Positions 1 through 54,418 of a DNA stretch of 64,000 nucleotides are shown here, piece after piece. A program made the translations under genes and the position numbers. Positions within the stretch are counted from its first letter, which is position 1. The number at the start of each line of letters is the position of its first letter. The notes below the pieces were generated by a model. It was not told the DNA's origin. It saw only the letters and a list, made by a program, of their open reading frames with translations, and searched no databases. The stretch spans positions 353,829-417,828 of the forward strand of contig CAZREA010000001.1 of assembly GCA_964599455.1 (NCBI GenBank). Direction: 5' to 3'. The stretch comes from an uncultured Gammaproteobacteria bacterium (GTDB taxonomy: Bacteria; Patescibacteriota; Patescibacteriia; UBA9934).

Positions 1-469
1 CGGCGCCAGAGTAGCCGTCACAGTTGTAGTCGCTCGGGTCGCTGCAGTCTTCCTCGAGGGCGCCGGGATTGTAGGCAGCGTCGCCGTCGTCGCAGTCACC
101 CGCGACGCCCGCGAAGCCATCGGGCTGGTCGCAGGCGATCTGGTTGTCAGGTCCGTCGACACCATAGCTGTCGGCGTCGAAGTCCGGGTACCAGATAGAG
201 GCGTCGATTGCGTCCTCGTCGACGATGTTGTCGCAGTCGTTGTCCTTGCCGTCGCACAGCTCGGACGCGCCGGGATGCCGAGAGGCGTCCTGGTCGTCAC
301 AATCCTCCTCGGCGACCACGCCGTCGCGGTCATCGTCGGCGCTTCGGATGGCGTCACACTGTTCCACCGTCAGGCCGTAGCAGAGATCCAGCCGCTCTGC
401 ATGTTCCTTGTCGGAGATATCGACACACGCCGCTGCCAGCAGCAGTCCGAACAGAATGAAAACCCTCAT
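1..469 (-). CDS. Secreted/lipoprotein with MopE-like putative metal-binding Cys/Asp-rich repeats (start codon at 467-469; C-terminus runs off the window)
   Basis: Minus-strand translation MRVFILFGLLLAAAC... shows a signal peptide with a lipobox-like Cys, followed by repeated DCDDxDAxxxPGAxExCDGxDNDCD motifs. Local GC is about 66% with strong GC3 bias. Not in the ORF track because it has no in-window stop. Confidence 0.6.
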   Translation of the reverse strand, partial: MRVFILFGLLLAAACVDISDKEHAERLDLCYGLTVEQCDAIRSADDDRDGVVAEEDCDDQDASRHPGASELCDGKDNDCDNIVDEDAIDASIWYPDFDADSYGVDGPDNQIACDQPDGFAGVAGDCDDGDAAYNPGALEEDCSDPSDYNCDGYSGA

Positions 470-733
470 TTTCGCGTCTCCGTGCGGATAGGAATCCGCC
501 TTATTCCCCAACGTTTTCCGGCGTGGGGAGCGTTATATTTACTGACGAAGGAAGAGATCCGGCTCTCTCTATGTATTCCGTCAAAATCAGAGAAAAAACT
601 ACTTTTTAGCGAGCTTCTCATGATCTTTTCGGAAAAAGAACGGAAGAAAAAAGTTCTTCGGTTGTTTTTCCGCTCCTCCTGTACGGTTTTTGTTCGTATA
701 CTCTTACCAAAAAAGCAAAGAAAAAGCAAGTAT

Positions 734-3059: not shown

Positions 3060-3145
3060 TGGTGGGTTGAGAAGGATTCGAACCTTCGTAGGCGTAAGCC
3101 AGCAGATTTACAGTCTGCCCTCGTTGACCGCTTGAGTATCAACCC
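3060..3145 (-). tRNA. tRNA-Tyr (anticodon GUA), type II with long variable arm
   Basis: Reverse complement reads GGGTTGATACTCAAGCGGTCAACGAGGGCAGACTGTAAATCTGC...GGTTCGAATCCTTCTCAACCCACCA. It has a 7-bp acceptor stem, a CUGUAAA anticodon loop and an encoded CCA. Architecture closely parallels E. coli tRNA-Tyr. Confidence 0.85.
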
Positions 3146-3155
3146 AAATAATGAA

Positions 3156-3232
3156 TGGAGCCGATGGTCGGATTCGAACCGACGACCTGCTGTTTACAAA
3201 ACAGCTGCTCTAACCAACTGAGCTACATCGGC
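3156..3232 (-). tRNA. tRNA-Thr (anticodon UGU)
   Basis: Reverse complement reads GCCGATGTAGCTCAGTTGGTTAGAGCAGCTGTTTTGTAAACAGCAGGTCGTCGGTTCGAATCCGACCATCGGCTCCA. It folds as a canonical cloverleaf with a TTTGTAA anticodon loop. Confidence 0.85.
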
Positions 3233-3349
3233 AACCGTCGACTTTTTGCAGGCGAGATCGTAACACGATCAACGAGACTGGACAAGAGGATACGGGCATA
3301 CCCGTGTCGCACGTCCTCATCCACATTTTCTGCTATACTTCTTTTATCT

Positions 3350-4684
3350 ATGCAATCAAAAACACTTCTTACCGGCGTTGGCGCTATCGCACTAGCCGCA
3401 ATTTCATCGTTTGGAACCGTTTGGTACCTCGACTATCAATCAAAAGTACCAACAGATTCATCAAACAAACAAACGGCTCACTCAAACGATGCCGATATAT
3501 TAAATAAAGAAGATACCCCTTACGCCACCATGCTTGCTTTCCAAAGTAGTCAGGGTTTTATGGGAAACAAAAAAGCTGAAGAATACGCAACGGAAAATGG
3601 CTGGTATGCCTTTACAAAAAGTGAATATTACGAAACATTTTTAAAAAATCTTACAAAAGCACTTTCTGATAATGCAAAGCTCGTGAAAGAGAGTGGTGCT
3701 TCCATGAATCGTGATATTGTTGGTGCTTTTACTTGGAATGTAAGCGAGCCTATACAGGGAACCTATGACTGGACGATCCCTGATATGACCATGTTCGCCG
3801 CAGGTGAAGCCGAAGTCTACGAACTTGGCGTTATTCAACCCTTTGCATCCTGGGCAACAACCAATGAACTTAATCCAGAAAATTGCCAAGGTATCGATTT
3901 TATCTACCATGATTTCAAGGGCGGTCTCCCAAAAGGAACCTCTCTTGAAAATTATAAAATCTGGCTGCAGACTATCGTTGAACGGTACGACGGAGATGGT
4001 ATCGACGACATGGATGGCCTTAAAACAAAAGTATCTGCATGGGAAATCGGCAACGAAATTGAAGGAATGTGCCATGGGTCAACCCTCACTGCAGAAGAAT
4101 ATGCAGACTTCCTTGCGATATCTGCAGAAACCATCAAAAAAGCTGACCCCGATGCAATCGTCATGAATGGAGGGGCGTTGGAAATTGTTGGCGGAAATGG
4201 CCAAGAAATTCCTGAGACGATTACTTTTTGGAAAGCCTTTTTTGCCGCCGATGGCGCCGATGCGCTCGATGTCTTCAATCTTCATTACAATACCGAACGC
4301 TCGGGATCATTATCGTCGACCGATAACTGGAAAAATCTCATCTCGTTCTATCGCGATCTTCTTGATGATGCAGGTAGAGAAGATGTAAAAATCTGGGCAA
4401 CGGAATTTGGAACGTACAGCGGGACACCTAGCTCTCCAAATAACGGCGGTGCGACGATCCAAGTACCGACAGGTATGGAAAATGCTGGCTCAAAAACACA
4501 AAGCGAATCTTTTCAAACGTCGTGGTTTGAAAAATATATCGCTCTTGGCGAAGAATATAATGTAGAAAAATACTTCATCGATCTTATTGGTCCCGACAAC
4601 AGTACGATTGGTGGATCAGCGATATTTAGCGCACAAAGTAGAGAAGCACGCCCATTCCTGAAAGCCTTGCAAGCCATGGAGTAA
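3350..4684 (+). CDS. Glycoside hydrolase, clan GH-A (GH5-like) with N-terminal membrane anchor/signal
   Basis: The track ORF starts inside the tRNA, so the plausible start is MQSKTLLTGVGAIALAA at 3350. It contains SAWEIGNEIEG (acid/base region) and WATEFGTYSG (nucleophile region), typical of (beta/alpha)8 clan-A hydrolases. Confidence 0.55.
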   Translation: MQSKTLLTGVGAIALAAISSFGTVWYLDYQSKVPTDSSNKQTAHSNDADILNKEDTPYATMLAFQSSQGFMGNKKAEEYATENGWYAFTKSEYYETFLKNLTKALSDNAKLVKESGASMNRDIVGAFTWNVSEPIQGTYDWTIPDMTMFAAGEAEVYELGVIQPFASWATTNELNPENCQGIDFIYHDFKGGLPKGTSLENYKIWLQTIVERYDGDGIDDMDGLKTKVSAWEIGNEIEGMCHGSTLTAEEYADFLAISAETIKKADPDAIVMNGGALEIVGGNGQEIPETITFWKAFFAADGADALDVFNLHYNTERSGSLSSTDNWKNLISFYRDLLDDAGREDVKIWATEFGTYSGTPSSPNNGGATIQVPTGMENAGSKTQSESFQTSWFEKYIALGEEYNVEKYFIDLIGPDNSTIGGSAIFSAQSREARPFLKALQAME

Positions 4685-4692
4685 AAACAAAA

Positions 4693-4725
4693 ATCACCCT
4701 CGACAAGCGAAGGGTGATTTTTTTA
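4693..4725. terminator. Bidirectional rho-independent terminator between the convergent GH and helicase genes
   Basis: The hairpin ATCACCCT-N10-AGGGTGAT is followed by TTTTTTT and preceded by an A-tract. Confidence 0.55.
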
Positions 4726-4743
4726 ATCTCGTGCAATGTCTGT

Positions 4744-6039
4744 TTAAATAAACACGCGACGTGGCTTTGCCGAAGAACTGCCCGATGACGTCGATGCAGA
4801 TGCAGTAGGAGCAGTGGTTCGAACCGGGAATCGACGCGGTGCATGACCACGAGGAGCTAACGAACGTTGCTGTGGACGAGAAAAAGGTTTGCGAGGAGTG
4901 GCTGATTCTGTAAAAGATGATGAGCGAGATACCGTTGATTTTCCGGAAACGGGAATCTGTTTACCAATCAAGCGTTCGATGGTGCGAATAAGTTGTTTTT
5001 GATCAGGCGTGACAAACGAAACCGCTTTTCCCTCTTTGCCCGCACGACCGGTGCGGCCAATACGATGCACGTAATCCTCTGGATTATCGGGAAGATCGAA
5101 ATTCACCACTAACGAAAGATCGCGCACATCAACACCACGAGCAGCAATATCGGTTGCAACCAGAACGCGTGTTTTTCCTGACTTAAAGGATTCAAGCGAT
5201 GCCTTGCGTTGCTGCAAAGATAGATTGGCATGCAATTCTCCGGCAGTAAAATTATTTTCACGTAATGCTAACGCAATCTTACGCGCACCATGTTTGGTAC
5301 GAGAGAACACCAGCACGCTGCCCGGATGTTCACGCAAAATAGTTACAAGCATTGTATGTTTATCGAACTTCGGAACGAGAATGATTTCTTGGGCAATTTT
5401 ATCAACCGTTGTTCCTGCAGGCGCAACTTCAATGCGCACCGGTGCACGCATATGATTCTTCGCCAAATTCATGATGGCATCAGGCATGGTTGCCGAAAAC
5501 AACAGTGTTTGACGCTCCTTGGGAACACTCGACAAAATGGTGTTGAGCTGCGGAGCAAAACCCATATCAAACATACGATCTGCTTCGTCGAGAACCAGAA
5601 CGCCCGTATGCGCAAGCGAAACCGTCTTCTGTTGCAAGTGGTCAACCAAACGACCAGGAGTGGCAATAATCACGTGCGGTTTAGCGCGCAATTTTTGCTT
5701 TTGGGCAAACATCGACGCGCCACCAATAAGCACCGCAGTGCGCATACCCAGTCCCGCACCAATACCTCGAAGCTCTTCGTCGACCTGGAGGGCGAGTTCG
5801 CGGGTTGGCAACAAAATAAGACCTTGCTTTTTCAAGCGAGCTAATCGTTCAATGAGTGGCAGGCCGAAAGCAAAGGTTTTTCCGGTTCCAGTCTGGGCAA
5901 TACCCACGACATCGGTTCCTTGTAAAACCACAGGAATCGCCTGCACCTGGATAGGGGTTGGCGTAAGAATATTTCGTTCTGACAAAAGTGAAACCAATTT
6001 CTTGGCAAGGCCAAGATCGGCAAAAGTAGCTTCCTGCAT
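4744..6039 (-). CDS. DEAD-box ATP-dependent RNA helicase with Arg/Ser-rich C-terminal tail
   Basis: Motifs present are AQTGTGKT (Walker A), LVLDEADRMFDMGF (DEAD), SAT, VATDIAARGVDV and HRIGRTGRAG. Start chosen at MQEATFADLG (6039) rather than the upstream in-frame Met. Confidence 0.85.
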   Translation of the reverse strand: MQEATFADLGLAKKLVSLLSERNILTPTPIQVQAIPVVLQGTDVVGIAQTGTGKTFAFGLPLIERLARLKKQGLILLPTRELALQVDEELRGIGAGLGMRTAVLIGGASMFAQKQKLRAKPHVIIATPGRLVDHLQQKTVSLAHTGVLVLDEADRMFDMGFAPQLNTILSSVPKERQTLLFSATMPDAIMNLAKNHMRAPVRIEVAPAGTTVDKIAQEIILVPKFDKHTMLVTILREHPGSVLVFSRTKHGARKIALALRENNFTAGELHANLSLQQRKASLESFKSGKTRVLVATDIAARGVDVRDLSLVVNFDLPDNPEDYVHRIGRTGRAGKEGKAVSFVTPDQKQLIRTIERLIGKQIPVSGKSTVSRSSSFTESATPRKPFSRPQQRSLAPRGHAPRRFPVRTTAPTASASTSSGSSSAKPRRVFI

Positions 6040-6149
6040 AGAGAATACCGCGAATCTCTTCCATATCCACGGTAAACTCAAGGGGACCGATCGGGAAAAA
6101 ATGCGCTGAAGGTAAAAAATGAAAACCCTTTTATCTTAGCACAAATCTG

Positions 6150-6171
6150 AAATAATGTCAATTTTTATCCA
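6150..6171. repeat. Direct repeat copy 1 (AATAATGTCAATTTTTATCCAGA)
   Basis: Near-identical to 7577..7599. The two copies flank a 1.4-kb stretch containing two GC-rich hypothetical genes. Confidence 0.4.
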
Positions 6172-6228
6172 GACATTTAAACCAAAAAGGACCCGTACAC
6201 GCATGCATACAGGTCCCCACGCCCACGT

Positions 6229-6864
6229 TCAAACGCGGGTTGCGGCAAAACGCCGACGATCCCAATTGTCATCGAGCATACAGCAGGCTAAATGCGGCCG
6301 TCCTTCAGAACAGGTGAGACAGCAAATATACACATCCCCAGCCCCGTCCTGAAAGGCAGCTTCCCAGAAGCAAATCAGCGGAGCCTTGCCCTGATCATCT
6401 GGCCGTGTCCAAGCAGGCGGAATGAGGTCAGGACACTCCTGCAGAGCTGCAGCTATGTTCGGGTGCAGCGTCTTCGATCCCCCGCCCCGGAGCTGCCCAT
6501 GCAAATCGTGGCCATATACCTCTCCTGCTGCTTGCTCGACGGTAAGAAAGAGTTCAACTCTCGCTCCGTCGACATAGAGATCGTCCGCTCGACGTTCTAC
6601 CGTAACCCAACCCGATCCCTTATTCCATTTCGTATCCATGTCTCCCAACACCGGAAGCGGCGGGAAACCGGTCAAGTTTACCTGGATTGACGTTTCGGAA
6701 ATCCTCTCCAAAAGCCCAAAATTGCGGTAATAACGAATAAAAGCAAGAGCTTCCGTGGCATGCCAACGAAGCCAGGCAGCGTCCTCGTCGGAGGCGCCCG
6801 CGTCCAAGAGGGCCTGCAGAGCGAGGCCAAACTTGGGATGTTCAAGCTCGATAGAACGTTCCAT
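6229..6864 (-). CDS. Hypothetical protein (GC-rich block gene 1)
   Basis: Start chosen at MERSIELEH (6864) because a GGAGGAGGG Shine-Dalgarno lies 9 nt upstream. The track start at 6900 lacks an SD. Local GC is about 58-60%. Confidence 0.5.
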   Translation of the reverse strand: MERSIELEHPKFGLALQALLDAGASDEDAAWLRWHATEALAFIRYYRNFGLLERISETSIQVNLTGFPPLPVLGDMDTKWNKGSGWVTVERRADDLYVDGARVELFLTVEQAAGEVYGHDLHGQLRGGGSKTLHPNIAAALQECPDLIPPAWTRPDDQGKAPLICFWEAAFQDGAGDVYICCLTCSEGRPHLACCMLDDNWDRRRFAATRV

Positions 6865-7102
6865 TTGGAATAACCCTCCTCGTAAACCATTAGCGTCCAT
6901 GATCCGAGAATCTCAGATCATCACGAACGGTTTGTTGTTGAAAACGGCAGTTTAAAGCCATTTGCATAGCTACAAAATGCCGCATTCAACAAAATAAAGT
7001 AGCAAAAATAAGCCAAAGAGTCAACACACGGTGATTCTAAAAAAAACACCGCTCCCGGAGCACGACCACATCAAGGCGAATCGTATTCTGAGAGCGGTGA
7101 CG

Positions 7103-7483
7103 TCAGGACACCTGCCTGAGCGCGTGAGCGATGAAGTCATCGGGAGGACGGACGGCGTGGTCGCGCACATAGTGCAGGAATCCATCCGGCCACTGGTAGG
7201 TGCCGTCACAATGCTCGCCCGAGCCGTTGCTGCAGCCGCACAGGCGGCAGACCGAGGGACCGCGCGAAGGAGCCTGTACCTTGCCCACAGTCTCGATGTA
7301 CCGCAGCAGACGACGCTGGTCGTTGAGCAACAGGTTGCCCCACCAGACGGGATCGACGTGATCCTGAACTTCCGGGAAACCCACACAGGCCCGCTTGATG
7401 TCCTCGGCCATATCTCGTGCAATGGGGTCATCGGGGATGAACTGCTCCAGCCCCTTGAAACTCCAAAAACCAACCTGTGTCAT
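7103..7483 (-). CDS. Hypothetical Cys/His-rich protein (GC-rich block gene 2)
   Basis: Start at MTQVGFWSF (7483) with GGAG upstream. Contains CRLCGCSNGSGEHCDG...HYVRDH. The opposite-strand ORF 7031..7516 looks less protein-like. Confidence 0.45.
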   Translation of the reverse strand: MTQVGFWSFKGLEQFIPDDPIARDMAEDIKRACVGFPEVQDHVDPVWWGNLLLNDQRRLLRYIETVGKVQAPSRGPSVCRLCGCSNGSGEHCDGTYQWPDGFLHYVRDHAVRPPDDFIAHALRQVS

Positions 7484-7576
7484 TCCTGGCTCCGATGTGA
7501 AAAGGTGGAAGATTGAGCATCGCTTGCCTGAGCTCGCGACATAACACATTCCCATACTTTTATTAGTATGGCAACC

Positions 7577-7599
7577 ATAATGTCAATTTTTTATCCGGA
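7577..7599. repeat. Direct repeat copy 2 (ATAATGTCAATTTTTTATCCGGA)
   Basis: Matches 6150..6171 except for one extra T and one A/G change. Confidence 0.4.
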
Positions 7600-7667
7600 A
7601 ATGAAAGAGCGCGTCTCGTCAGGCAGAGGCCCGACAAGACGGGTGCTCTCTGCCCTACGAAACGCGC

Positions 7668-8219
7668 TTACGTAGGCCACCACTCGGGCCGAGGCGGCGA
7701 GTAGGTCTCGAAACCGCCAAGCTCCTGGACCGCCGCGCACCAGAGCCGGTCGTGCTCGGGCATAAGCTCAGCGATCGCTTCTTTGACCGCCACAATGTTC
7801 CCGATGGTGTAGATAACGTTGCCGTTCAGGGAGTGATACCATCCCACATGCTGACCAGACAAAGCAGCAACGGCCAGTACCCAGCCTTCCATATCGAGGG
7901 GAGCGATGGTATTGGTCACAAACAGGTCGCCATCACCACAGGCGAGACGATCCGCAACGGTCGGCGCCAAGCAAGCGATGTTCAGGTGGTCGTAGACGCT
8001 GTGGACGAGAATACCGAATGCTTCGGCAATAGTCACCACATCAACGCCAGGATTTATCGTGTTCACATAATGAGGCAATTGCTCAGCCAGCTCCACGCTC
8101 AACCTGTGAGCGCAGGCCCTGCGATACGCATCGTCTCCCAGGGCAAGCGAGTGGAGGTCGCTGCCCGCTTGCAGAGCAGCATTGAGGTGCTCTCGCAATG
8201 TCTTTCGCCATCCCTCCAT
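7668..8219 (-). CDS. Hypothetical protein (GC-rich block gene 3)
   Basis: 183-aa ORF with a canonical AAGGAG Shine-Dalgarno 5 nt upstream of the ATG at 8219. GC is about 60%. Confidence 0.55.
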   Translation of the reverse strand: MEGWRKTLREHLNAALQAGSDLHSLALGDDAYRRACAHRLSVELAEQLPHYVNTINPGVDVVTIAEAFGILVHSVYDHLNIACLAPTVADRLACGDGDLFVTNTIAPLDMEGWVLAVAALSGQHVGWYHSLNGNVIYTIGNIVAVKEAIAELMPEHDRLWCAAVQELGGFETYSPPRPEWWPT

Positions 8220-8513
8220 GACAACTCCTTACTAGTGAAGAACGAGTAGCTTTATTGCCGACTCGATCGCATGAATTTGCGACATGACATATTTTCACAC
8301 TTTTATGATGATGACAACTCTATGTACTAGATGGACACTCTACTTTTGAGAATTTAGCTGAATTTCTTAATATTGGATAGTATCATAGCCGGAATTTTAT
8401 TTGTGCGCACTATAGTGTACAGGGTCCAGTCCAGGCCGCTATCAAAACATACAGTGCATCTAGAAGTATGAGACCTCTCCCACAAAATTAGCAGAAACAA
8501 AATATTGCATCAA

Positions 8514-8557
8514 AATCTCAAAAAAACAAAAAACTCTGATACGGTAGAATATCAGAG
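8514..8557 (-). terminator. Rho-independent terminator downstream of the tRNA-Thr 3' fragment (native tRNA terminator)
   Basis: On the minus strand the hairpin CTCTGATA-N8-TATCAGAG is followed by a T-rich tract (complement of the A-run at 8514-8533), immediately 3' of the tRNA fragment. Confidence 0.45.
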
Positions 8558-8562
8558 CCTTT

Positions 8563-8609
8563 TGGAGCCACAGACCAGGATTGAACTGGTGACCTCATCC
8601 TTACCATGG
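8563..8609 (-). pseudogene. 3' fragment of tRNA-Thr(GGU), anticodon loop through CCA (element-junction remnant)
   Basis: Reverse complement reads CCATGGTAAGGATGAGGTCACCAGTTCAATCCTGGTCTGTGGCTCCA. This matches the 3' exon of the intact tRNA at 21736..21776 with two compensatory T-stem changes. It diverges at the 11-bp core CCTTACCATGG. Confidence 0.6.
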
Positions 8610-8823
8610 GGGAGGTCGAGTTCAGAAATCCCAATTATCGGCTAACTGTAGTAAAGAAACCGTGAAAATGAGAAGCTTTGACAATCCGTCTACTCGACCA
8701 CTTCCACAATTAGTTACGACGTAAATTATGCCCCGTGTTTACTCCTTAGTCAAGTACAGATTTCAAGTAGGTACGGCACAAGAGCTACCACACAGAGAGC
8801 CGGCGGACGCTTCCTTTTCATGT

Positions 8824-9837: not shown

Positions 9838-10839
9838 TTAGAGAATGTTGAGTACATGAAGCGAGTTCCACACATTGAAAAGTGCCAACGCTACGACCAC
9901 AATACCCGCCGCTTTGAAGAACACGCCCTTCCACGGCTTGTTGGAGATTTCCAATGCCCCGAATGAAAGGAGCGCTAGCACAGGGAAAGTTCCAAGCGCA
10001 AATGCGAGCATGGTAAGCCCACCCGTCACAAAACTCCCCGTAGTGAGCGTGTAAACCTGCATGGATTGCGTGAAGCCGCATGGGAGGAAGAATGTGCCGA
10101 TCCCCACGAGGAACGGAGCCAGAACGTGTGAGGAACCGCTAGCGCGTACGGTATGCCGTGCAAAGACGCTGGGGAGCTTCGGTTGCAGCCGTTTGAGCGC
10201 CGGGAAGGTATCAAGCAGGTTGAGGCCCAAGATGAGCATAACGATTCCCACAGCTATTCCGAGCACCGCACTCCCCACAAGGCCGAGCTCGAATAACTTT
10301 CCTGCGCTTCCAATTGCGCCGCCAAGTACGAAGAATCCGCCGAGACGACCAACATGGAACATTGCCTGCGAGCGCCAATGTGTTTGGTTTTTGGCGGCGT
10401 TTGCTGAGAGCGACAGGACAAGTCCACCCACGACCGCCAGACACGTTGAGACGGAAGCGATGAGGCCGATCAGAACAGCCGTGCCGTAGGAGACGTTACC
10501 GGACGTAATCAGGTTAACGAGGCCGAGCTGCTGTAGCAGGAGGAAGCCGATAATAGCCGTCAGAGCTGCGGGTATGGCAATAAGAAACTCCCGATGGTTT
10601 TTTCTTTCTTTGGCGCGCTCCAGCGCAAGGCGGTAGCCGTTCCCTGAAACAAGTGTTGTCAGCTTTTCGGCGAGAACGGCAGGATCGCCGTCCAAGTCGC
10701 CAGAAACCGTCACGGCGCACATGGTGAGATCCGCCTTCACTTCTGCCACGCCTGCGTTGCCCTTGAGGGTTTCTTCAAGATAGAAGACGCAGGACGCGCA
10801 ATGCATCCCTTCTACAAAGAATGTGTGTTTACTTTGCAT
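9838..10839 (-). CDS. HMA-domain fused to DsbD_2/CcdA-like thiol-disulfide membrane transporter
   Basis: N-terminal GMHCASC heavy-metal-associated motif, then a 6-8 TM region with STCLAVVGG and FLPCGFT cysteine motifs typical of CcdA/DsbD_2. Confidence 0.55.
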
Positions 10840-13087
10840 ACGAGATTTTCTTCATCTTCAAACGAAGCGAGTTGAGTACGACCGACACGCTCGACATCGC
10901 CATCGCAAACCCTGCAAACACCGGGGAGAGCAGCCAACCCGTGAACGGGTAGAAGACACCCGCAGCAAGCGGGATGCCGATGACGTTGTAGATGAAGGCC
11001 GAGAAAAGGTTTTGACGAACCGTACGCATTGTTGCCTTGGAAAGCTCGATTGCCTGCGAGATTTTACGAATATCGCCCTTAAGAAGCGTCACGTCGCTTG
11101 TCTCGATGGAGACATCAGAACCGGTTGCCATCGCCATGCCAACATCGGCTTGAGCGAGGGCCGGTGCATCGTTTACGCCATCGCCTGCCATCGCCACAAC
11201 CTCCCCCTTGGCTTGTAACTCTTTGATAAGCGCCAGTTTTTCTTGAGGTAGAACTCCCGCAACGTAACGATCAATACGGAGTTCATCCGCAACGGCCTTT
11301 GCCGTTCCTTCATGGTCTCCGGTTGCCATCACGACCTTGATTCCCATGCCATGCAGCTTCCGCACGGCTTCCTTGGCTTCGGGCTTGATCTTGTCGGCAA
11401 CCGCGACAACGGCGAGGACCTCTTTGTCGGTTGCGAGCGCGATCAACGTTGCATTCTTGGATGACGTCTTGCCCTTTGGGAGTGTGAGACCAAGTGACTG
11501 CAAAAGGGCCGGGCCGCCAACGTAATAGGTCGTTCCATCAATGACGCCACGGATACCGCTTCCCGCGATGTTCTCGAACTCAACAACCTTTTTCTTTTTG
11601 GCGTCCTTCGCATAGGCGACGATTGCGTCCGCAAGCGGGTGCTCGGACTTTTCTTCCAAGCTCGCCATAATGGAAAGCGCATCTCCTTCGGGCAGATCTC
11701 CTATTACGGTGAAGTTTGCGACTTCCGGCTTACCCTTGGTGAGCGTTCCGGTCTTATCGATAACAAGCGTCGTGATCTTGTGCATCTTTTCAAGCACCTC
11801 GGCATTTTTAATGAGAATACCTAGCGTTGCACCCCGTCCCACACCGACCATGATCGCCGTTGGTGTTGCGAGGCCGAGCGCACAAGGACACGCAATAACA
11901 AGGACAGTCACGAATGAGGAAATGGCGAGCGGCACATTGCCCAGAAAGAGCCAAACGATAAGGGCAATGAAGGCGACGACCAACACGGCGGGAACAAAGA
12001 CACCGGAAATCTTATCTGCAAGACGCTGAATGGGTGCCTTTGACCCTTGGGCGTCGGCAACAAGAGCGATAATGTGCGCGAGGAGGGTTTCCGAGCCGAT
12101 CCCGGTCGCCTGCATCGTGAACGATCCGCTCGTGTTCATCGTTCCGGCAGAAACCTTGTCACCCGCCTTCTTTTCGACGGGGACAGGTTCGCCGGTAAGC
12201 AGGGATTCGTCGATAAATGACGCACCTTCCGCTACAACCCCGTCCACGGGGATTTTCATGCCCGGTTTTACCAACACAACGTCGCCCTTCTGTACCTGAT
12301 CAATCGAGACCGTTTGTTCTCTGCCCTCCCTAAGAACGGTTGCGGTTTTTACCTGTAGTCCCATGAGCTTTTTAATCGCGTCTCCGGTTTTTTCTTTTGC
12401 TCGGGCTTCAAAGTATTTACCAAGAGTGATCAAACCGATTACGACAATGGTCACGTCGTAGTAGGTCGCCGTAACATCGAGATACGGAGCGAGGACTTCC
12501 TCAAAAGCGGTGAGTGCAAAACTGTATAAAAACGCCGCCACCGTTCCAAGGCCGACGAGCGTATCCATGTCCGCAACACCACGGCGTAGGAACATCCAAA
12601 GACCGCGCAGGTACTGCGTCCCAGTCACGAAGAGAACATATGTCGCCATGATGGGGAGCAAGTGGTGGACGAACTCATAGACCGTTTCCGTCATCGCAGG
12701 GATGACATTAAATTTTGCGAGGATCTCCCAAACCATCATGGCTGCGGCAATAACAACCATGGGCATCGCGACGATAACCTTTTTTCGCAGAGCTCGCGCT
12801 TCTCCGTCAGAAACCGCCGCATGATCGTGCCCCTGCGTCTGATGCGATTCCGGCATTGCGTGAGCAGCGGGGTGTTCCTTAGCGTGGAGCTTGTAACCCA
12901 ATGGCTCAATTGTGCCAGAGAGCTTCTCAACATCCGTTTGGGCGGGATCGAGGGTGATTCGGGCTTCTTCCGTCGCCAAGTTCACCGAAACGTCTTTGAC
13001 GCCCTCTTGCGCCCCAAGTTTTTTCTCAATGCGGGACACGCACGAGGCGCAATGCATGCCTGAAATATGGGCAGTTATTTTCTCCAT
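10829..13087 (-). CDS. copA: Copper-translocating P1B-type ATPase
   Basis: HMA GMHCASC at the N-terminus, TM CPC motif ([12 protein letters not shown]), DKTGTLT phosphorylation site, [10 protein letters not shown] hinge. Confidence 0.9.
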
Positions 13088-13089
13088 AT

Positions 13090-13356
13090 TTATTTGCGCT
13101 TGAGTTTATAGACCTTAAGGATTTCCTCGACCGCCTTACTCTCCTTGCCGTTCTTGATTTGGTTGATGGCACAATGGCCCAAATGGCCTTCAAGCAAAAT
13201 ATCTTCAATGTTCGATAACCCCTGCTTCGCAGCAGAGGTCTGGGTGATGACATCGATACAATAGGTATCTTTTCCAATCATTTCCTGAAGACCACGAATC
13301 TGACCTTCGATGATTTTGAGCCGACGAAGTAAGCCCTTTTTGTCGCCATGTTTCAT
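13090..13356 (-). CDS. csoR: CsoR/RcnR-family copper-sensing transcriptional repressor
   Basis: About 88 aa with the C-x(n)-H-x3-C signature (YCIDV...HLGHCAI). The first ATG is at 13356; the track start at 13362 is a TTG. Confidence 0.7.
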
Positions 13357-13363
13357 ACGCAAA

Positions 13364-13389
13364 CATGATACCCCCTAGGGGGTATCATG
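13364..13389. promoter_or_regulatory. Perfect 26-bp palindrome CATGATACCCCCTAGGGGGTATCATG, candidate CsoR operator
   Basis: It lies immediately upstream of csoR-copA. The TACCC-N-GGGTA core resembles CsoR boxes described for Gram-positive copZA operators, as recalled. Confidence 0.5.
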
Positions 13390-13421
13390 TTAAGAGGCAA
13401 AGTGGATAGCGATTGTTCGGT

Positions 13422-14327
13422 TCAAAAAATAGAGTTAATGGGATTCTTTTCGATACTTGCATGAACCTGCTTTTGGTTGACTTGGGTGTAAATCATGGTG
13501 GTCGTTATTTCTTTATGACCAAGCGCCCGTTGAACGGCGAGAATATCATTGCTCCCCACATATGTTTGCGTGGCGAACGTATGACGGAACTTATGGGGTT
13601 TAATCCGTATACCCGCTCGCTCCCCAATGAGCCGAGTAAGGTGTTTGAGGCCGTTTACCGTGAACCGAGTTCGACCATGATAGGAGACCCAGAGCCAAAC
13701 TGTTTCTACTTTCCGCTTGTCTCGTTCACGCAGGTATCGCTCAAGAAGTTCACGAAGCCGAAAACACATCGGCACAGAACGTGCGGAGCGGCTTTTAGAT
13801 GTTTCGGCTCGGACGCGGATGACGCAGTTTTCCCAATCGAGATCGGTGAGCTTGAGGTTCAGGAGCTCCCCCTTCCGAAGCCCGGCCATAGCCATGACAC
13901 CGAATAAAGCTACATTACGGATACGTTCAAAGTCGGTTTTGGCGCACATGTTAACGTGGTACATGATCGTCTCCATTTCCGTTTGCGAGTAATACTCTGG
14001 CAAGTTCTTCATGAGGGGTGGAACTGGAATGGTATCGAGCGGATTCATGGCCAGATGCCCACGATTAACACACCATTTGAAGAAGGGCGCGAGGTTTTTA
14101 CGGTACGAAATGATTGTCGCTGCCTTCCAGCCACGTTCGCGTTCTCCGCGAATAAGAAACTGCCGCAAAATACCTTCCGTCAACTCGTCAGTTGTTTTGA
14201 CAGGAAATAATTTCAATAGCAGGCGAAAGCTCTCATGGTAGCTTTGCATCGTCGCATCCGAACGACGCGCGAGGGTTCCGTCCTCGCACTCGCGGATGAA
14301 CTGGTTGTGCGCCTGCTGTACATTCAC
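13422..14327 (-). CDS. Tyrosine recombinase/integrase (XerC/D-like)
   Basis: C-terminal catalytic region HKFRHTFAT...LGH...Y with R..HxxR..Y spacing. Confidence 0.8.
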   Translation of the reverse strand: MNVQQAHNQFIRECEDGTLARRSDATMQSYHESFRLLLKLFPVKTTDELTEGILRQFLIRGERERGWKAATIISYRKNLAPFFKWCVNRGHLAMNPLDTIPVPPLMKNLPEYYSQTEMETIMYHVNMCAKTDFERIRNVALFGVMAMAGLRKGELLNLKLTDLDWENCVIRVRAETSKSRSARSVPMCFRLRELLERYLRERDKRKVETVWLWVSYHGRTRFTVNGLKHLTRLIGERAGIRIKPHKFRHTFATQTYVGSNDILAVQRALGHKEITTTMIYTQVNQKQVHASIEKNPINSIF

Positions 14328-14331
14328 AAAA

Positions 14332-14670
14332 TTATTTCATTTCCCACCCGCGCTTTGCGGCAAACTCTTGGCTAATGTCATAAACCATCTGCCAGAGACG
14401 GTCGTCACCCATAAGCTCCACGATGAGCTCCTCCATTTCCGCATCTCCAATTGCAACTCCGTAGTAATCCCGGAAATGAAACCAGAAAGATTCGATAAAG
14501 TCGTACGAAAAGAATTGCTTGCGATCTGGGTGCTCCAAATACATTTGGCGATCTCGCTTTTCGGCTTTATCCGCTCTTGCAAGCATCTCTTCAAATTCTG
14601 GCTTCTCCATATGCTCAAGGGATGCCTGTACCTCCGCCTCCGTCGCCGACTGAATGTTCTCTTGGTTCAT
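14332..14670 (-). CDS. Hypothetical protein (between two recombinase genes)
   Basis: 112-aa acidic ORF, spaced 4 to 14 nt from its neighbours. Confidence 0.4.
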   Translation of the reverse strand: MNQENIQSATEAEVQASLEHMEKPEFEEMLARADKAEKRDRQMYLEHPDRKQFFSYDFIESFWFHFRDYYGVAIGDAEMEELIVELMGDDRLWQMVYDISQEFAAKRGWEMK

Positions 14671-14684
14671 ATCATTTGGGGTTA

Positions 14685-15845
14685 TTAGTTATTTGCTGAC
14701 ATTGCTTTCACGATTTGTGCGATGCGGGCTAAATCTTCCTCGCCAAGAACCGGCTTGGCCTGTAGTGATTCGGGGTCAATGCCGCTTAGCAATTCAATCT
14801 GTCGCTCCTCATCGATCTTGCCGTACCCGTACGAACCGAATGTCGTTGAAACGTGTTCGTGGCCGAGGTTTTGGCTGATTGCCTTTTTCTGCTCCTCGGT
14901 AAGCGGGATTTTCATGAACTCTTTGACGACAAGGTGACGGAATGTGTGAGGATGAAAGTACGGCACTCCGGCGGCCTTGAATCGCTTCTCAAAGATCTTT
15001 CGCGCTGAACTGCTCTTCTCCCAAAATTCTTGGTTAACCTCCCCCGAACTGTAGTAACTGACGTTTTCTTCACCTTGCTCGATTTTTGTTGCCGGGAAGA
15101 TGGGGTCGGTTGCCGCGTACCCTTTCTCGTTCACGAGATAGTCGTACCAACTGAGAAAGTATTCTTTTGGTTTGTCGTATTTGAGCGGGAAGAGGGCTGT
15201 GGTGATGCGTTTGGCGTACTTCGTTTTCACACCCAATGACGGGTCTTGATCGACAACGAGGTCGTCACGATCAAATGCACCGATGGGAAGACTGACGATT
15301 GCCGATATGCGAGCGCCTGTCAGGAGCGAGAAGGAGATCAGTGCCCTGTCTCGACGGTCAACCTCGGTTATTGGCTCGATGAACTCTATGACTGTCTGAA
15401 CCTGCTCAATCGTTGGAATTTTGCGCCGCCCGGACTGACGTGCTTGTCGGCTCTCCTTCTTTCCGAGATTCAGGAAGTCGATGTCGGTTATCTTGATGCT
15501 TTGCTTGTAGGCATCCTGCTCGGCAAGCCACCGGAAGAACGCCTTGAGCTTGCGTAGCGTGTGGTACTGGTATGACACGCTCAGCTTCTCATCCCCTGCG
15601 CCATCACGATCGGCGAGCCAACTTTTGAACTGCATGGCGTTCGCTTTGTTGAACGACCGGAAATCTTCATCGTGCGTAAATTCCTGCCAACGAAGGAGCG
15701 CCTTCTCGTAGGTCTCAATGCTGTTTTCGGCATACCCACCCGAGGCACGTTGATAATCGAAGAAGCGACGCTTCATGATCTCGTTTTGGTAACGAATTTC
15801 CTCGTGGGATTTGCCTTTGATTTTGTCTTCGATGAATTCACTCAT
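14685..15845 (-). CDS. Phage-type tyrosine integrase with N-terminal SAM-like/core-binding domain
   Basis: HPHTFRHLVVKE...LGHEHVSTTFGSYGY. 386 aa. Confidence 0.8.
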   Translation of the reverse strand: MSEFIEDKIKGKSHEEIRYQNEIMKRRFFDYQRASGGYAENSIETYEKALLRWQEFTHDEDFRSFNKANAMQFKSWLADRDGAGDEKLSVSYQYHTLRKLKAFFRWLAEQDAYKQSIKITDIDFLNLGKKESRQARQSGRRKIPTIEQVQTVIEFIEPITEVDRRDRALISFSLLTGARISAIVSLPIGAFDRDDLVVDQDPSLGVKTKYAKRITTALFPLKYDKPKEYFLSWYDYLVNEKGYAATDPIFPATKIEQGEENVSYYSSGEVNQEFWEKSSSARKIFEKRFKAAGVPYFHPHTFRHLVVKEFMKIPLTEEQKKAISQNLGHEHVSTTFGSYGYGKIDEERQIELLSGIDPESLQAKPVLGEEDLARIAQIVKAMSANN

Positions 15846-21735: not shown

Positions 21736-22014
21736 TGGAGCCACAGACCGGGATTGAACCGGTGACCTCATCCTTCGTTTACACCTCTGCTTTCTAGGGC
21801 ATATCAGAGGGCTAGACTGTATCTTGAGCTTTCTCTTGCGAGGGAAGCTCCCCTTGTCAGTCGTTCGGGCGTACGCTTTCGCGTTGACGCCACGGTCTTG
21901 ACCTTGCCGGGTCTTTAACCGTAATTCGGGATTCAATCCTGCATTTCTGCGAGGAGGGGCAGGAGACATTACGTCCCACCATGGATGCGCTCTACCAACT
22001 GAGCTACTGCGGCA
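21736..22014 (-). tRNA. tRNA-Thr (anticodon GGU) interrupted by a 202-nt putative group I intron after anticodon position 36
   Basis: Exons (reverse complement) GCCGCAGTAGCTCAGTTGGTAGAGCGCATCCATGGT | AAGGATGAGGTCACCGGTTCAATCCCGGTCTGTGGCTCCA join into a canonical 76-nt cloverleaf with anticodon loop AUGGUAA. The spliced sequence equals the contiguous sequence seen in the fragments at 8563..8609 and 22130..22169. Confidence 0.6.
21777..21978 (-). ncRNA. Putative group I intron in tRNA-Thr anticodon loop
   Basis: The 5' exon ends in U and the intron ends in G. There are R-like (GAACGACUGACAAGG) and S-like (CAAGAUACAGUCUAGCC) elements with a 5-bp P7 (GACUG/CAGUC). A P8-like hairpin (GAGCUU...AAGCUC) and a P9-like hairpin (CCUCUG...CAGAGG) are also present. 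No ORF inside. Confidence 0.45.
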
Positions 22015-22129
22015 TGAATTGTTTGGCTCCGACGGCCACTTCCACGGGGGATGTGGTCGTCTGATTTTTGTTTTCTTGATTTCTTCTTTTACATTAGCGT
22101 GAAACCGCGTTTCTAGGGTAGACCGCCTC

Positions 22130-22169
22130 CTTACCATGGATGCGCTCTACCAACTGAGCTACTGCGGCG
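22130..22169 (-). pseudogene. 5' fragment of tRNA-Thr(GGU), positions 1 to ~41, ending at the 11-bp core (element right junction)
   Basis: Identical over 36 nt to the 5' exon of the intact gene. Sequence upstream of the core is unrelated to tRNA. Confidence 0.55.
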
Positions 22170-25220: not shown

Positions 25221-25231
25221 TGGTGAATGGA

Positions 25232-25367
25232 TAGACCCTGAGCGCATGCGAAGGGCCTAGAAAAATTCCTTAGCCAAATACGAGAATGAAAAATCCTGAA
25301 AGAATTCTTTCAGGATTTTTGATATCCATCTTATGAATCTGCTAGGCCCTTCCTAACGTCAGGGTCT
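25232..25367. repeat. MITE/REP-like palindromic element with imperfect terminal inverted repeats and a central perfect hairpin
   Basis: Left end TAGACCCTGAGCGCATGCGAAGGGCCTAG pairs with right end CTAGGCCCTTCCTAACGTCAGGGTCTA. Centre AAAATCCTGAAAGAATTCTTTCAGGATTTT (25290-25319) is a bidirectional terminator-like hairpin. A related copy is at 26950..27030. Confidence 0.5.
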
Positions 25368-26936: not shown

Positions 26937-26949
26937 AGGAAGGGGAAAG

Positions 26950-27030
26950 ACTCTGAGCGAATGCGAAGGGCCTAGAAAAATTCCTTCGTGACGTAGGAGT
27001 TTTCTAGGTCCCTCCTAACGTCGGGATCTG
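26950..27030. repeat. Second, shorter copy of the palindromic repeat element
   Basis: GACTCTGAGCGAATGCGAAGGGCCTAGAAAAATTCCTT...TTTTCTAGGTCCCTCCTAACGTCGGGATC shares both arms with 25232..25367. Confidence 0.5.
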
Positions 27031-52968: not shown

Positions 52969-53901
52969 ATGCAAGCTCTCATGATTCGGGACAAGGCGTG
53001 GGAGAAGACTGACCGAATACCTCACTGGGTGCGCGGACGAGAAATTGGCTTAGATCAATATAATACTTTGCCACAGGTTGCCGAGCATTGTTGGAATTCG
53101 TTTCAAAAAACCTTGGAAAAGGATGGGGCTAATTTAAGCAATTATAAAATAGTTGAGCCGAGTGCAGGAACGGGATCGTTTTATAATCTTCTTCCAAAGA
53201 GATCTCGCATTGGCATAGATGTAGAAAAGTATAAAGATGAATACATCCAGCAAGATTTTTTAACATGGGAACCAAATAATACTGATCAACGACCATGTGT
53301 AGCGATAGGGAATCCCCCATTCGGCTACAGGGGCTGGCTAGCGTTGGCTTTTATGAATCGCGCCTCAGAGTTTTGTGATTATGTTGGTTTTATTCTCCCG
53401 ATGTCATTTCAAAGTGATGGTAAAGGAAGTCCAAAAAACCGAGTCAAGGGAATGAGATTAATACATTCAGAACATCTGTCTGGAGATATGTTCATGTTGC
53501 CAAACGGAGAAATGGTTCAAGTTAACACACTATGGCAAATATGGAAAAAAGGCGAAGCTGAACCTCTGCCTGATTTAAGTGAAGCTGACGAATATATTGA
53601 CCTTTTTACTGTTGATTATCGTAAAGAAAGATTATGCGGGATGGAAAAAGTAGAAAATTGTAATACTTTCCTTCAAAGAACATATTTTAATGAACCGCCC
53701 GAAATAGTTGATGACTTTTCTAAAGTAAAGTATGTATGTGGTTACGGTATTTTAATAAAGAAAGAAGTAAAAACGATTCTGAATCTTTTAAAGAAGGTGA
53801 ATTGGAACAAATATAGCAACCTAGCTACGCATAATTGTCGCCACATTTCCATGTACCACATTAAGTTAGCTTTAATAGAAAGCCTGCATGTCAAATCTTG
53901 A
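52969..53901 (+). CDS. N6-adenine DNA methyltransferase (gamma-class order: motif I then NPPF)
   Basis: EPSAGTGSF (FxGxG-like) then GNPPFG. The gene sits in a ~38% GC patch. Confidence 0.65.
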   Translation: MQALMIRDKAWEKTDRIPHWVRGREIGLDQYNTLPQVAEHCWNSFQKTLEKDGANLSNYKIVEPSAGTGSFYNLLPKRSRIGIDVEKYKDEYIQQDFLTWEPNNTDQRPCVAIGNPPFGYRGWLALAFMNRASEFCDYVGFILPMSFQSDGKGSPKNRVKGMRLIHSEHLSGDMFMLPNGEMVQVNTLWQIWKKGEAEPLPDLSEADEYIDLFTVDYRKERLCGMEKVENCNTFLQRTYFNEPPEIVDDFSKVKYVCGYGILIKKEVKTILNLLKKVNWNKYSNLATHNCRHISMYHIKLALIESLHVKS

Positions 53902-54418
53902 TTATAAAAGCCTATTCGTAAAGGCATTAGAGAAAAACGTAGACAATCCAAAATGGAAAGAAGGTGATTTTGTTGGCATTAAAACAGTTTCAAATACAAA
54001 GGTAGGCACTATTGGACAGGACTTTATTGAGGGTCTTTGTAACGCTCTTTCTGTACCATGTAATTTTCCGTTAAGAACGGACAATACCAGAATGACACAG
54101 AGTCCTTGGGACATTGAAATTTTTAGTGTTAAATTTGAGCTTAAAACCGCCACGGAAGATGTTGGTGGATGTTTTCAGTTTAATCACATTCGATATCATA
54201 GACCTTATGACGCCGTATTGTGCTTAGGGGTAACTCCAAATGCACTATATTTTGGAGTGTGGTCTAAGGCAGATGTCGTAACAGGGAAGGCTGGCAATCT
54301 TGTATCTATGGAGAAAGGCGGAAATGCATCTTATAAAATGACAAAAAGGCCACGAGATCTTTCTCCTATTATTGAATTTGAACAAAAAATCAAAGATTTT
54401 ACCGCTCGATTTAAATAG
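53888..54418 (+). CDS. Candidate Type II restriction endonuclease partner (PD-(D/E)xK-like)
   Basis: Overlaps the MTase gene by 14 nt with the same low GC. SPWDIEIFSVKFELK gives PD...ExK spacing. Confidence 0.35.
   Translation: MSNLDYKSLFVKALEKNVDNPKWKEGDFVGIKTVSNTKVGTIGQDFIEGLCNALSVPCNFPLRTDNTRMTQSPWDIEIFSVKFELKTATEDVGGCFQFNHIRYHRPYDAVLCLGVTPNALYFGVWSKADVVTGKAGNLVSMEKGGNASYKMTKRPRDLSPIIEFEQKIKDFTARFK

Follow-up and report, generated by a model that had tools for sequence, protein, structure and literature searches.

The described systems that come closest to the locus considered here are genomic islands associated with tRNA genes, prophage morons of the type defined by Hendrix, immunity-gene arrays of polymorphic toxins, and integron cassettes. 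The region downstream of the 3' end of a tRNA gene is the classic position of a genomic island. Integron cassettes, which follow one another as short genes on one strand, are usually promoterless. The locus is a block of about 2.3 kb with three small minus-strand genes, located in a stretch of 64,000 nt (here called the window; positions 353,829 to 417,828 of contig CAZREA010000001.1, assembly GCA_964599455.1) from an uncultured Gammaproteobacteria bacterium that is placed in the Patescibacteriota by the GTDB. The account that we favor, and regard as moderately probable, is that the block is an islet of foreign genes that accumulated at a tRNA hot spot as three moron-like units descended from mobile elements, and that the direct repeat found in it is a duplicated promoter segment. 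Here, the composition, expression signals, relatives and surroundings of the block are described, the competing explanations are weighed, and the locus is compared with the known systems.

Composition and Expression Signals of the Three Genes

The genes are numbered by position: gene 1 (6229-6864, protein P0001 of 211 amino acids [aa]), gene 2 (7103-7483, P0002, 126 aa), and gene 3 (7668-8219, P0003, 183 aa). Independent gene callers gave identical calls for all three open reading frames (ORFs) on two Logan contigs, which were assembled independently and are 100% identical to the window, without polymorphism. The GC contents of genes 1, 2 and 3 are 55.7%, 61.4% and 58.3%, which exceeds the window mean of 47.7% by 8 to 14 points, and windows of 1 kb over the block reach 51% and 57%. 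An earlier reading made from the letters alone (the sequence-only reading) had put the genes at about 60% GC, a value that suits genes 2 and 3 and is too high for gene 1. The GC content at third codon positions (GC3) is 0.55, 0.74 and 0.67, compared with about 0.38-0.50 in the core genes at 22-64 kb of the window. The correlation between the composition-normalized tetranucleotide signatures of the block and the core is r = 0.64, lower than for any of 200 randomly drawn core pieces of the same size (mean 0.805, sd 0.048, minimum 0.656), and the sliding-window z-score over the block falls to about -6. A compositional signature that is uniform over the window was thus not seen. The block is not unique in deviating, since further deviant stretches lie at 9838-15845 (GC-rich), at 15-22.5 kb and at 1-520 (GC-rich).

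The intergenic spacers (147, 238, 184 and 604 nt) have 41-50% GC. A good Shine-Dalgarno (SD) site precedes each gene, as the sequence-only reading had stated: GGAGG at 6875-6879 with a spacing of 10 nt for gene 1, GGAG with 6 nt for gene 2, and AAGGAG with 5 nt for gene 3. All three genes display the expected pattern of GC content over the codon positions (GC1/GC2/GC3), and a terminator is found on the minus strand just past each stop codon. The intrinsic terminator of gene 1 (6177-6218) consists of a 14-bp stem and a T-rich tail (fold z-score -3.5), and that of gene 2 (7039-7099) of a long hairpin followed by a run of eight T (z-score -4.2). Gene 3 has a terminator-like hairpin of 61 nt (7597-7668) that overlaps the stop codon and is followed by a T-rich tail; its fold has -42.6 kcal/mol and a z-score of -5.6. 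In each of the three cases none of 200 shuffles folded as well. The hairpins at these 3' ends are of the ordinary GC-rich kind, with T-tails, and have no sequence in common with one another. The promoter candidates stand at the level of consensus likeness: gene 2 has the TTGACA within the repeat, gene 3 has TGTACA-16 nt-TAAAAT, and gene 1 has a weak candidate read by eye, TTGACT-17 nt-TACTTT. These signals suggest that the three genes may be transcribed independently.

Relatives of the Encoded Proteins

Each of the three proteins is a singleton cluster among 5.8 billion proteins, the word-indexed search having returned only the query itself, and sequence searches against NCBIfam, PHROGs, PADLOC and the PDB gave no match. 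The BLAST comparison that the sequence-only reading had recommended for each protein ends in singletons by the word-indexed search, while remote relatives were found for genes 2 and 3 and none for gene 1.

The product of gene 2 carries a zinc-ribbon-like CxxC motif and a C-terminus of the form WPxGFxHYVxxHxVxPPxxF. Against the Pfam family DUF7919 (PF25535) it scores 22.1 bits, below the gathering cutoff of 27 (E 1.8e-4), with only residues 94-120 aligned. It is 41% identical over 87 aa to a Chitinophagales protein (L010:5950-6597; pairwise E 9e-19), which itself passes the DUF7919 cutoff with 28.7 bits, as does a Tenacibaculum relative with 28.0 bits. By this transitive homology, gene 2 is predicted to encode a diverged zinc-ribbon protein of the DUF7919 type. 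The homology also settles the reading frame against a 161-aa ORF that overlaps gene 2 on the plus strand. A full-length relative of gene 2 was found as an unannotated ORF beside an IS5 transposase on a conjugative plasmid of Bosea, and a weaker one beside an integrase on a Streptomyces plasmid; a scan of viral contigs with the single gene 2 protein gave no match. A Saccharibacteria match (L013), which covers 23 residues, was rejected as spurious.

In gene 3, a unique N-terminal region of about 90 residues precedes a C-terminal family domain (about residues 95-183). An exhaustive phmmer search (E <= 1e-3) returned 83 cluster representatives, and in about 78 of them the alignment is confined to residues ~85-183. 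These ~78 are genuine remote relatives of the C-terminal domain, and all of them are small proteins of about 100-110 aa. Long, repetitive proteins in the same list (P0005 and P0046) were set aside as spurious matches over multiple stretches. The family consensus reads CDxxV..G..VF.T.TI..E.WV.KVA..SGQ.VDWH..GGRA.V.ALGDL..V..AI..LMPEHD......PPRP.WW, and no Pfam, PHROG or PDB model covers it. Five members lie on IMG/VR contigs, near a PHROG integrase, HNH endonucleases and phage-only families. The domain defines a family fit for cataloguing, which is of modest value in itself.

Gene 1 is an ORF without relatives (ORFan), and its product has six cysteines in the C-terminal 50 residues. No relative was found among the 5.8e9 proteins (word-indexed), in Pfam, NCBIfam, PHROGs, PADLOC or the PDB, or on viral contigs. 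It is unrelated to gene 3 by BLASTP, and unrelated to the profile of the gene 3 family by hhalign. Matches of genes 1 and 3 to plasmids in tblastn (E2-fold, ParB and StcE) were rejected as noise at E >= 0.4. The single-sequence AlphaFold2 models of genes 1 and 3 are unusable, with predicted local distance difference test (pLDDT) values of 40 and 38, respectively.

The Split tRNA-Thr(GGU) Beside the Block

The block lies between the gene of a DEAD-box RNA helicase (4744-6039, minus strand), which has a host-like composition and forms the left limit, and the displaced 3' half of a host tRNA-Thr(GGU) gene with its terminator (8527-8615, minus strand), which forms the right limit. The half itself comprises 53 nt (8563-8615), its terminator lies at 8527-8564, and the block starts 343 nt from the half. 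The genes around the block include, besides the helicase and the tRNA half, those for a glycosyl-hydrolase-like protein and an S-adenosylmethionine (SAM) methyltransferase; a neighboring protein of 444 aa has no relative in genome or metagenome collections, from which it is itself absent.

The 5' half of the tRNA gene is found at 22128-22168 (minus strand), behind a promoter-like site read by eye as TTGACG-17 nt-TACTAT. It overlaps the 3' half by 12 nt, CCATGGTAAGGA, and the joined halves form a perfect 76-nt tRNA that ARAGORN calls as Thr(GGU). The same 12 nt are the attachment (att) core, present at 8598-8609 in the 3' half, which marks the left end of a 13.5-kb island between the two halves. 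The island is thus flanked by a tRNA-derived repeat, and the block lies just outside the att-delimited element. Three tyrosine recombinases, which are generic Phage_integrase proteins, are encoded in the island, together with an HTH_17 excisionase-like protein, a LOOT RNA, a methyltransferase and a copper-resistance module (CsoR/CopA/HMA-DsbD). The LOOT RNA (Rfam RF03000; 17615-17744, plus strand) scores 52.3 bits against a gathering threshold of 46.4 and lies between a 267-aa ORFan and a DUF4352 protein; literature searches for LOOT and for DUF7919 brought nothing useful. A tRNA or tmRNA gene at 8566-8720 was rejected by ARAGORN and Rfam, and the segment corresponds to the tRNA 3' half and the end of the island.

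The sequence-only reading had placed the block next to a tRNA island. The 3' half of tRNA-Thr(GGU) is indeed directly adjacent, while tRNA-Tyr and tRNA-Thr(UGU), at 3060-3232, are 3 kb away. Both Logan contigs (L001 and L002) end in tRNA genes, at 3196 in tRNA-Thr(UGU) and at 8589 in the T-arm of the tRNA-Thr(GGU) 3' half, so that these assemblies offer no independent confirmation of the island junction. The breaks probably reflect tRNA sequence common to other members of the community.

The Direct Repeat and the Shared Leaders

A direct repeat of 22 bp that brackets two of the genes had been described in the sequence-only reading and put forward as a possible cassette boundary. The alignment of 6152-6177 with 7577-7603 spans 26 columns with 23 identities, one indel and two mismatches, and holds an exact core of 15 nt, ATAATGTCAATTTTT. 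Its local-alignment score of 35 was reached by none of 2000 Markov shuffles (maximum 28). The repeat is therefore real, and its two copies bracket genes 2 and 1. It carries an indel, and the form in which it had been written matches only once, even with up to three mismatches allowed, because copy 2 has an extra T. No third copy was found in the window.

As a boundary between cassettes the repeat is doubtful. Its coding-strand sequence is GGATAAAAA(A)TTGACATTAT, an A-tract followed by a -35 box (TTGACA). Copy 1 (6151-6177, minus strand, ..CTGGATAAAAATTGACATTAT) is the A-tract and -35 portion of a canonical promoter of the helicase gene, in which the -35 box at 6156-6161 is followed by a 17-nt spacer and TGcTAAGAT, a near-consensus extended -10 element with its hexamer at 6133-6138. 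Copy 2 (7576-7603, minus strand, ..CCGGATAAAAAATTGACATTAT), with its one additional A/T, lies just past the terminator tail of gene 3 and about 95 nt upstream of the start codon of gene 2, for which it may supply a promoter. Each copy begins at most 10 nt from the T-tail of the preceding terminator, on the coding strand and upstream of a gene.

The leaders of genes 2 and 3, on which the sequence-only reading was silent, are paralogous. The segment at 7520-7575 upstream of gene 2 is about 71% identical, over 56 nt without gaps, to that at 8263-8318 upstream of gene 3 (both minus strand). The similarity runs on to the SD site, which gives a homologous stretch of about 60-100 nt. A 30-nt consensus in IUPAC code, ATAAAAGTRTGRRAATRTGTYATGTCGCRA, matches exactly these two sites, with 0 matches expected by chance; no convincing RNA structure common to the two leaders was found. 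The region upstream of gene 2 is thus a mosaic, because its distal part is like the helicase promoter and its proximal part like the gene 3 leader.

Origin of the Block

In the account that we favor, the block would be a 2.3-kb islet in a plasticity zone downstream of tRNA-Thr(GGU), set between the tRNA terminator and the helicase promoter. It would consist of three independent transcription units, each with an AT-rich upstream region, an SD site, a GC-rich ORF and an intrinsic terminator. Genes 2 and 3 belong to families that are also represented on phages, plasmids and integrative elements. The repeat would represent two copies of the A-tract and -35 box of a sigma-70 promoter, rather than a recombination site: copy 1 would drive the helicase gene, and copy 2, upstream of gene 2, would have been fused to the leader that genes 2 and 3 have in common. 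From this fusion it would follow that upstream regions were duplicated or recombined while the genes accumulated. The proposal of the sequence-only reading that the genes were separately acquired gains from the foreign GC, GC3 and tetranucleotide signature, from the relatives of genes 2 and 3 on mobile DNA and from the adjoining tRNA hot spot, all of which suggest that the block was acquired horizontally from mobile DNA. As for the products, one may guess at accessory functions of mobile elements, not essential to the host.

Several observations weigh against this account. Among the 80 helicase loci that were compared (at most 61% identical), none is syntenic with this one, lies near a tRNA-Thr gene or carries a relative of the block; no closely related genome was found in the collections searched, of which the species-representative one lacks this genome itself, and hence no comparison with an empty site was available. 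Neither an att duplication nor a tRNA remnant flanks the block. Its AT-rich spacers have a host-like composition, which would not be expected of one block imported from a high-GC donor. Copy 2 of the repeat is not followed at 16-18 nt by a good -10 hexamer, and the promoter scan did not pick it up; an identity of 23/26 exceeds what a shared -35 box needs, so that common descent or a role in recombination may lie behind it. The Bacteroidota relatives of DUF7919 sit in ordinary chromosomal contexts. The case for gene 1 as a putative functional gene, finally, is made by its ORF length, SD site and terminator, and no homologue stands beside them.

The block may, alternatively, be the decayed distal part of an older island that entered this tRNA-Thr(GGU) gene at its 3' end and then lost its integrase and its distal att repeat. 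Such an origin, which we consider unlikely, overlaps with the favored account and differs from it only in the route of entry. It is consistent with the position of the block just beyond the 3' end and terminator of the tRNA, at a locus that is demonstrably a hot spot, and with an atypical tetranucleotide signal that is continuous over about 6.5-10.5 kb. Against it, no second tRNA-derived repeat stands out in 3233-8560, where the best alignment to tRNA-Thr scores within the range of shuffles; the block holds no recombinase pseudogene, and no recombinase ORF lies between 6082 and 8562; and its signature is unlike that of segments of the present island (r = 0.37-0.60).

A site-specific event would instead make genes 2 and 1 (about 1.4 kb, 6174-7576) a cis-mobilizable cassette that was inserted into the helicase promoter, with the repeats of 23-26 bp as the duplicated att core. 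Under this explanation the single-copy junction would be GGATAAAAATTGACATTAT, the cassette was possibly moved by a recombinase of the neighboring island, and gene 3, with its matching leader, would have arrived as a cassette at an earlier time. The repeats are significant, bracket two complete units exactly and occur only twice in 64 kb, the homologous leaders of genes 2 and 3 resemble a conserved cassette 5' end, and three tyrosine recombinases are encoded within 14 kb. What makes it distinctly unlikely is that the repeat is fully explained as an A-tract and -35 element in the right position and on the right strand for both downstream genes. The repeat is also unlike the island att core CCATGGTAAGGA and unlike an attC site, no third copy exists at gene 3 beyond a degenerate resemblance, and inverted repeats or attC-like folds are absent from the block besides the ordinary terminators. 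The broader idea of a small non-integron cassette system, in which promoter-bearing units headed by a conserved leader (about 100 nt) enter by site-specific recombination at a core sequence of roughly 23 bp overlapping the -35 box, seems to us improbable. If it were true, each capture would duplicate a promoter piece and add a foreign gene upstream of the helicase gene, and the enzyme might be a tyrosine recombinase of the island.

An array of orphan immunity genes, whose proteins were left by polymorphic toxins or stockpiled against them, was the interpretation raised by the sequence-only reading, and the genes are, as that would suggest, small, variable, tandem, co-oriented, compositionally foreign and lineage-restricted, with their own expression signals. 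We give it only a slim chance. Neither an Imm, SUKH or SMI1_KNR4 family nor any defense family was matched (Pfam at E <= 10; NCBIfam and PADLOC at E <= 1), and the surrounding 5 kb contain no gene of the toxin, Rhs, CDI, LXG or secretion type. The relatives, which the sequence-only reading had proposed to look for downstream of polymorphic toxin genes, occur in phage early-type regions, on plasmids and at chromosomal sites, and no toxin was found beside them in the contexts examined. A SUKH-like look of genes 1 and 3, noticed by eye in GxGD and hydrophobic stretches, was dropped because no tool confirmed it. The sole link to a toxin system is a 499-aa protein of a Nostoc sp. metagenome-assembled genome (JAVRCH010000039.1, L012:4768-6267), in which an eCIS_core domain (DUF4157) is combined with a C-terminal module like gene 2 and DUF7919 that reads CRLC...WPEGFKHYVEKHNV (of the type CxxC...WPxGFxHYVxxH). 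Proteins with eCIS_core usually carry a variable effector domain at the C-terminal end, and this is not the position of an immunity protein. The finding hints that a module of the DUF7919 type is able to serve as the C-terminal domain of a protein associated with extracellular contractile injection systems (eCIS).

That some or all of the ORFs are non-functional, either chance ORFs or decaying pseudogenes, is very improbable: the GC-rich DNA does give long plus-strand ORFs as well (7031-7516, 161 aa; 7752-8249, 165 aa), gene 1 has no homologue and the AlphaFold2 models are of low confidence, but the called frames of genes 2 and 3 yield significant homologues, all three genes share the SD site, codon-position pattern and terminator, and a low pLDDT obtained without an alignment is uninformative.

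Returning to the favored account, the finding itself is of minor importance, as it adds a further case of foreign orphan genes beside a tRNA hot spot in a poorly sampled small genome.

The Intron-Bearing tRNA of the Island and Other Features of the Window

The neighboring island is a more unusual object than the three-gene block. It contains a complete tRNA-Thr(GGU) gene of its own (21736-22013, minus strand), which is interrupted after nucleotide 36 by an intron of 202 nt (21776-21977). The intron lies exactly within the 12-nt att core (CCATGGT|AAGGA), and the T-stem differs from that of the host copy by a compensatory pair. Several hallmarks of group I were recognized by eye: a U.G pair at the 5' splice site in P1, three GNRA loops, a terminal G, P7 as GACUG/CAGUC, J8/7 as AAGAUA, and P8 and P9, all of them consistent with the minimum free energy (MFE) fold. 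The Rfam group I model misses the intron even at E <= 10. From the manual reading and the MFE fold, the intron may be described as group-I-like. Group I introns are not known from bacterial tRNA-Thr genes. Should the arrangement prove general, it would hint at a way in which an element replaces the tRNA gene that it destroys, while its own copy is shielded from being a target.

Elsewhere in the window, the stretch 1-520 (minus strand, running off the start) is the 5' part of a gene with 64-66% GC, whose product is a secreted protein with Cys/Asp-rich 'DCDD/CDGxDNDCD' repeats; the gene, too, has a foreign composition and lies close to the tRNA cluster. The strongest intergenic repeat of the window is a direct repeat of 43 nt (25229-25271 and 26944-26986; 93% identity, score 71), with its copies in the two intergenic regions that flank genes for a TPR-like protein and triosephosphate isomerase. 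A low-GC patch at 53001-54400 (37-38% GC, GC3 0.28-0.34), with plus-strand ORFs at 52969-53901 and 53888-54418, deviates in the direction opposite to the block.

Comparison With Known Systems

At the level of single proteins, the catalogued family that gene 2 approaches is DUF7919, a family without known function. Gene 2 is like its members in length (126 aa), in the CxxC motif and in the C-terminus WPxGxxHYVxxHxVxPPxxF, and differs from them in a divergent N-terminal half and in a score below the cutoff that covers only the last 27 residues.

With the immunity arrays of polymorphic toxins, the block shares tandem, small, fast-evolving and co-oriented genes of atypical composition. It lacks, however, a toxin gene, a toxin C-terminal fragment, a known immunity family and the shared toxin remnants between genes. 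Integron cassettes are alike in being short, unrelated ORFs in series on the same strand, with a repeated sequence at the unit boundaries. The units of the block, in contrast, have a promoter-like region and a terminator each, the repeat is a -35 element, and an attC fold, IntI and attI are absent, with the nearby recombinases compared at the level of generic Phage_integrase proteins within a tRNA-integrated island.

The block resembles the tRNA-associated islands in its site beside a tRNA gene, in the integrase-bearing island at the same locus and in the foreign GC, GC3 and oligonucleotide signature, but it lacks both an integrase and a tRNA-derived direct repeat at its flanks, and it lies outside the att-delimited island.

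The block differs from the prophage morons in that no recognizable prophage surrounds it, no phage structural or replication genes adjoin it, and three units stand in tandem, with a tRNA half on one side and the gene of a housekeeping helicase on the other. Only the relatives of gene 3 are phage-borne, and the promoters are candidates, whereas terminators and deviant composition are present in all three genes. Like morons, the units are single genes of accessory or unknown function, each with a candidate promoter region and an intrinsic terminator of its own, a distinct composition and phage-borne relatives.

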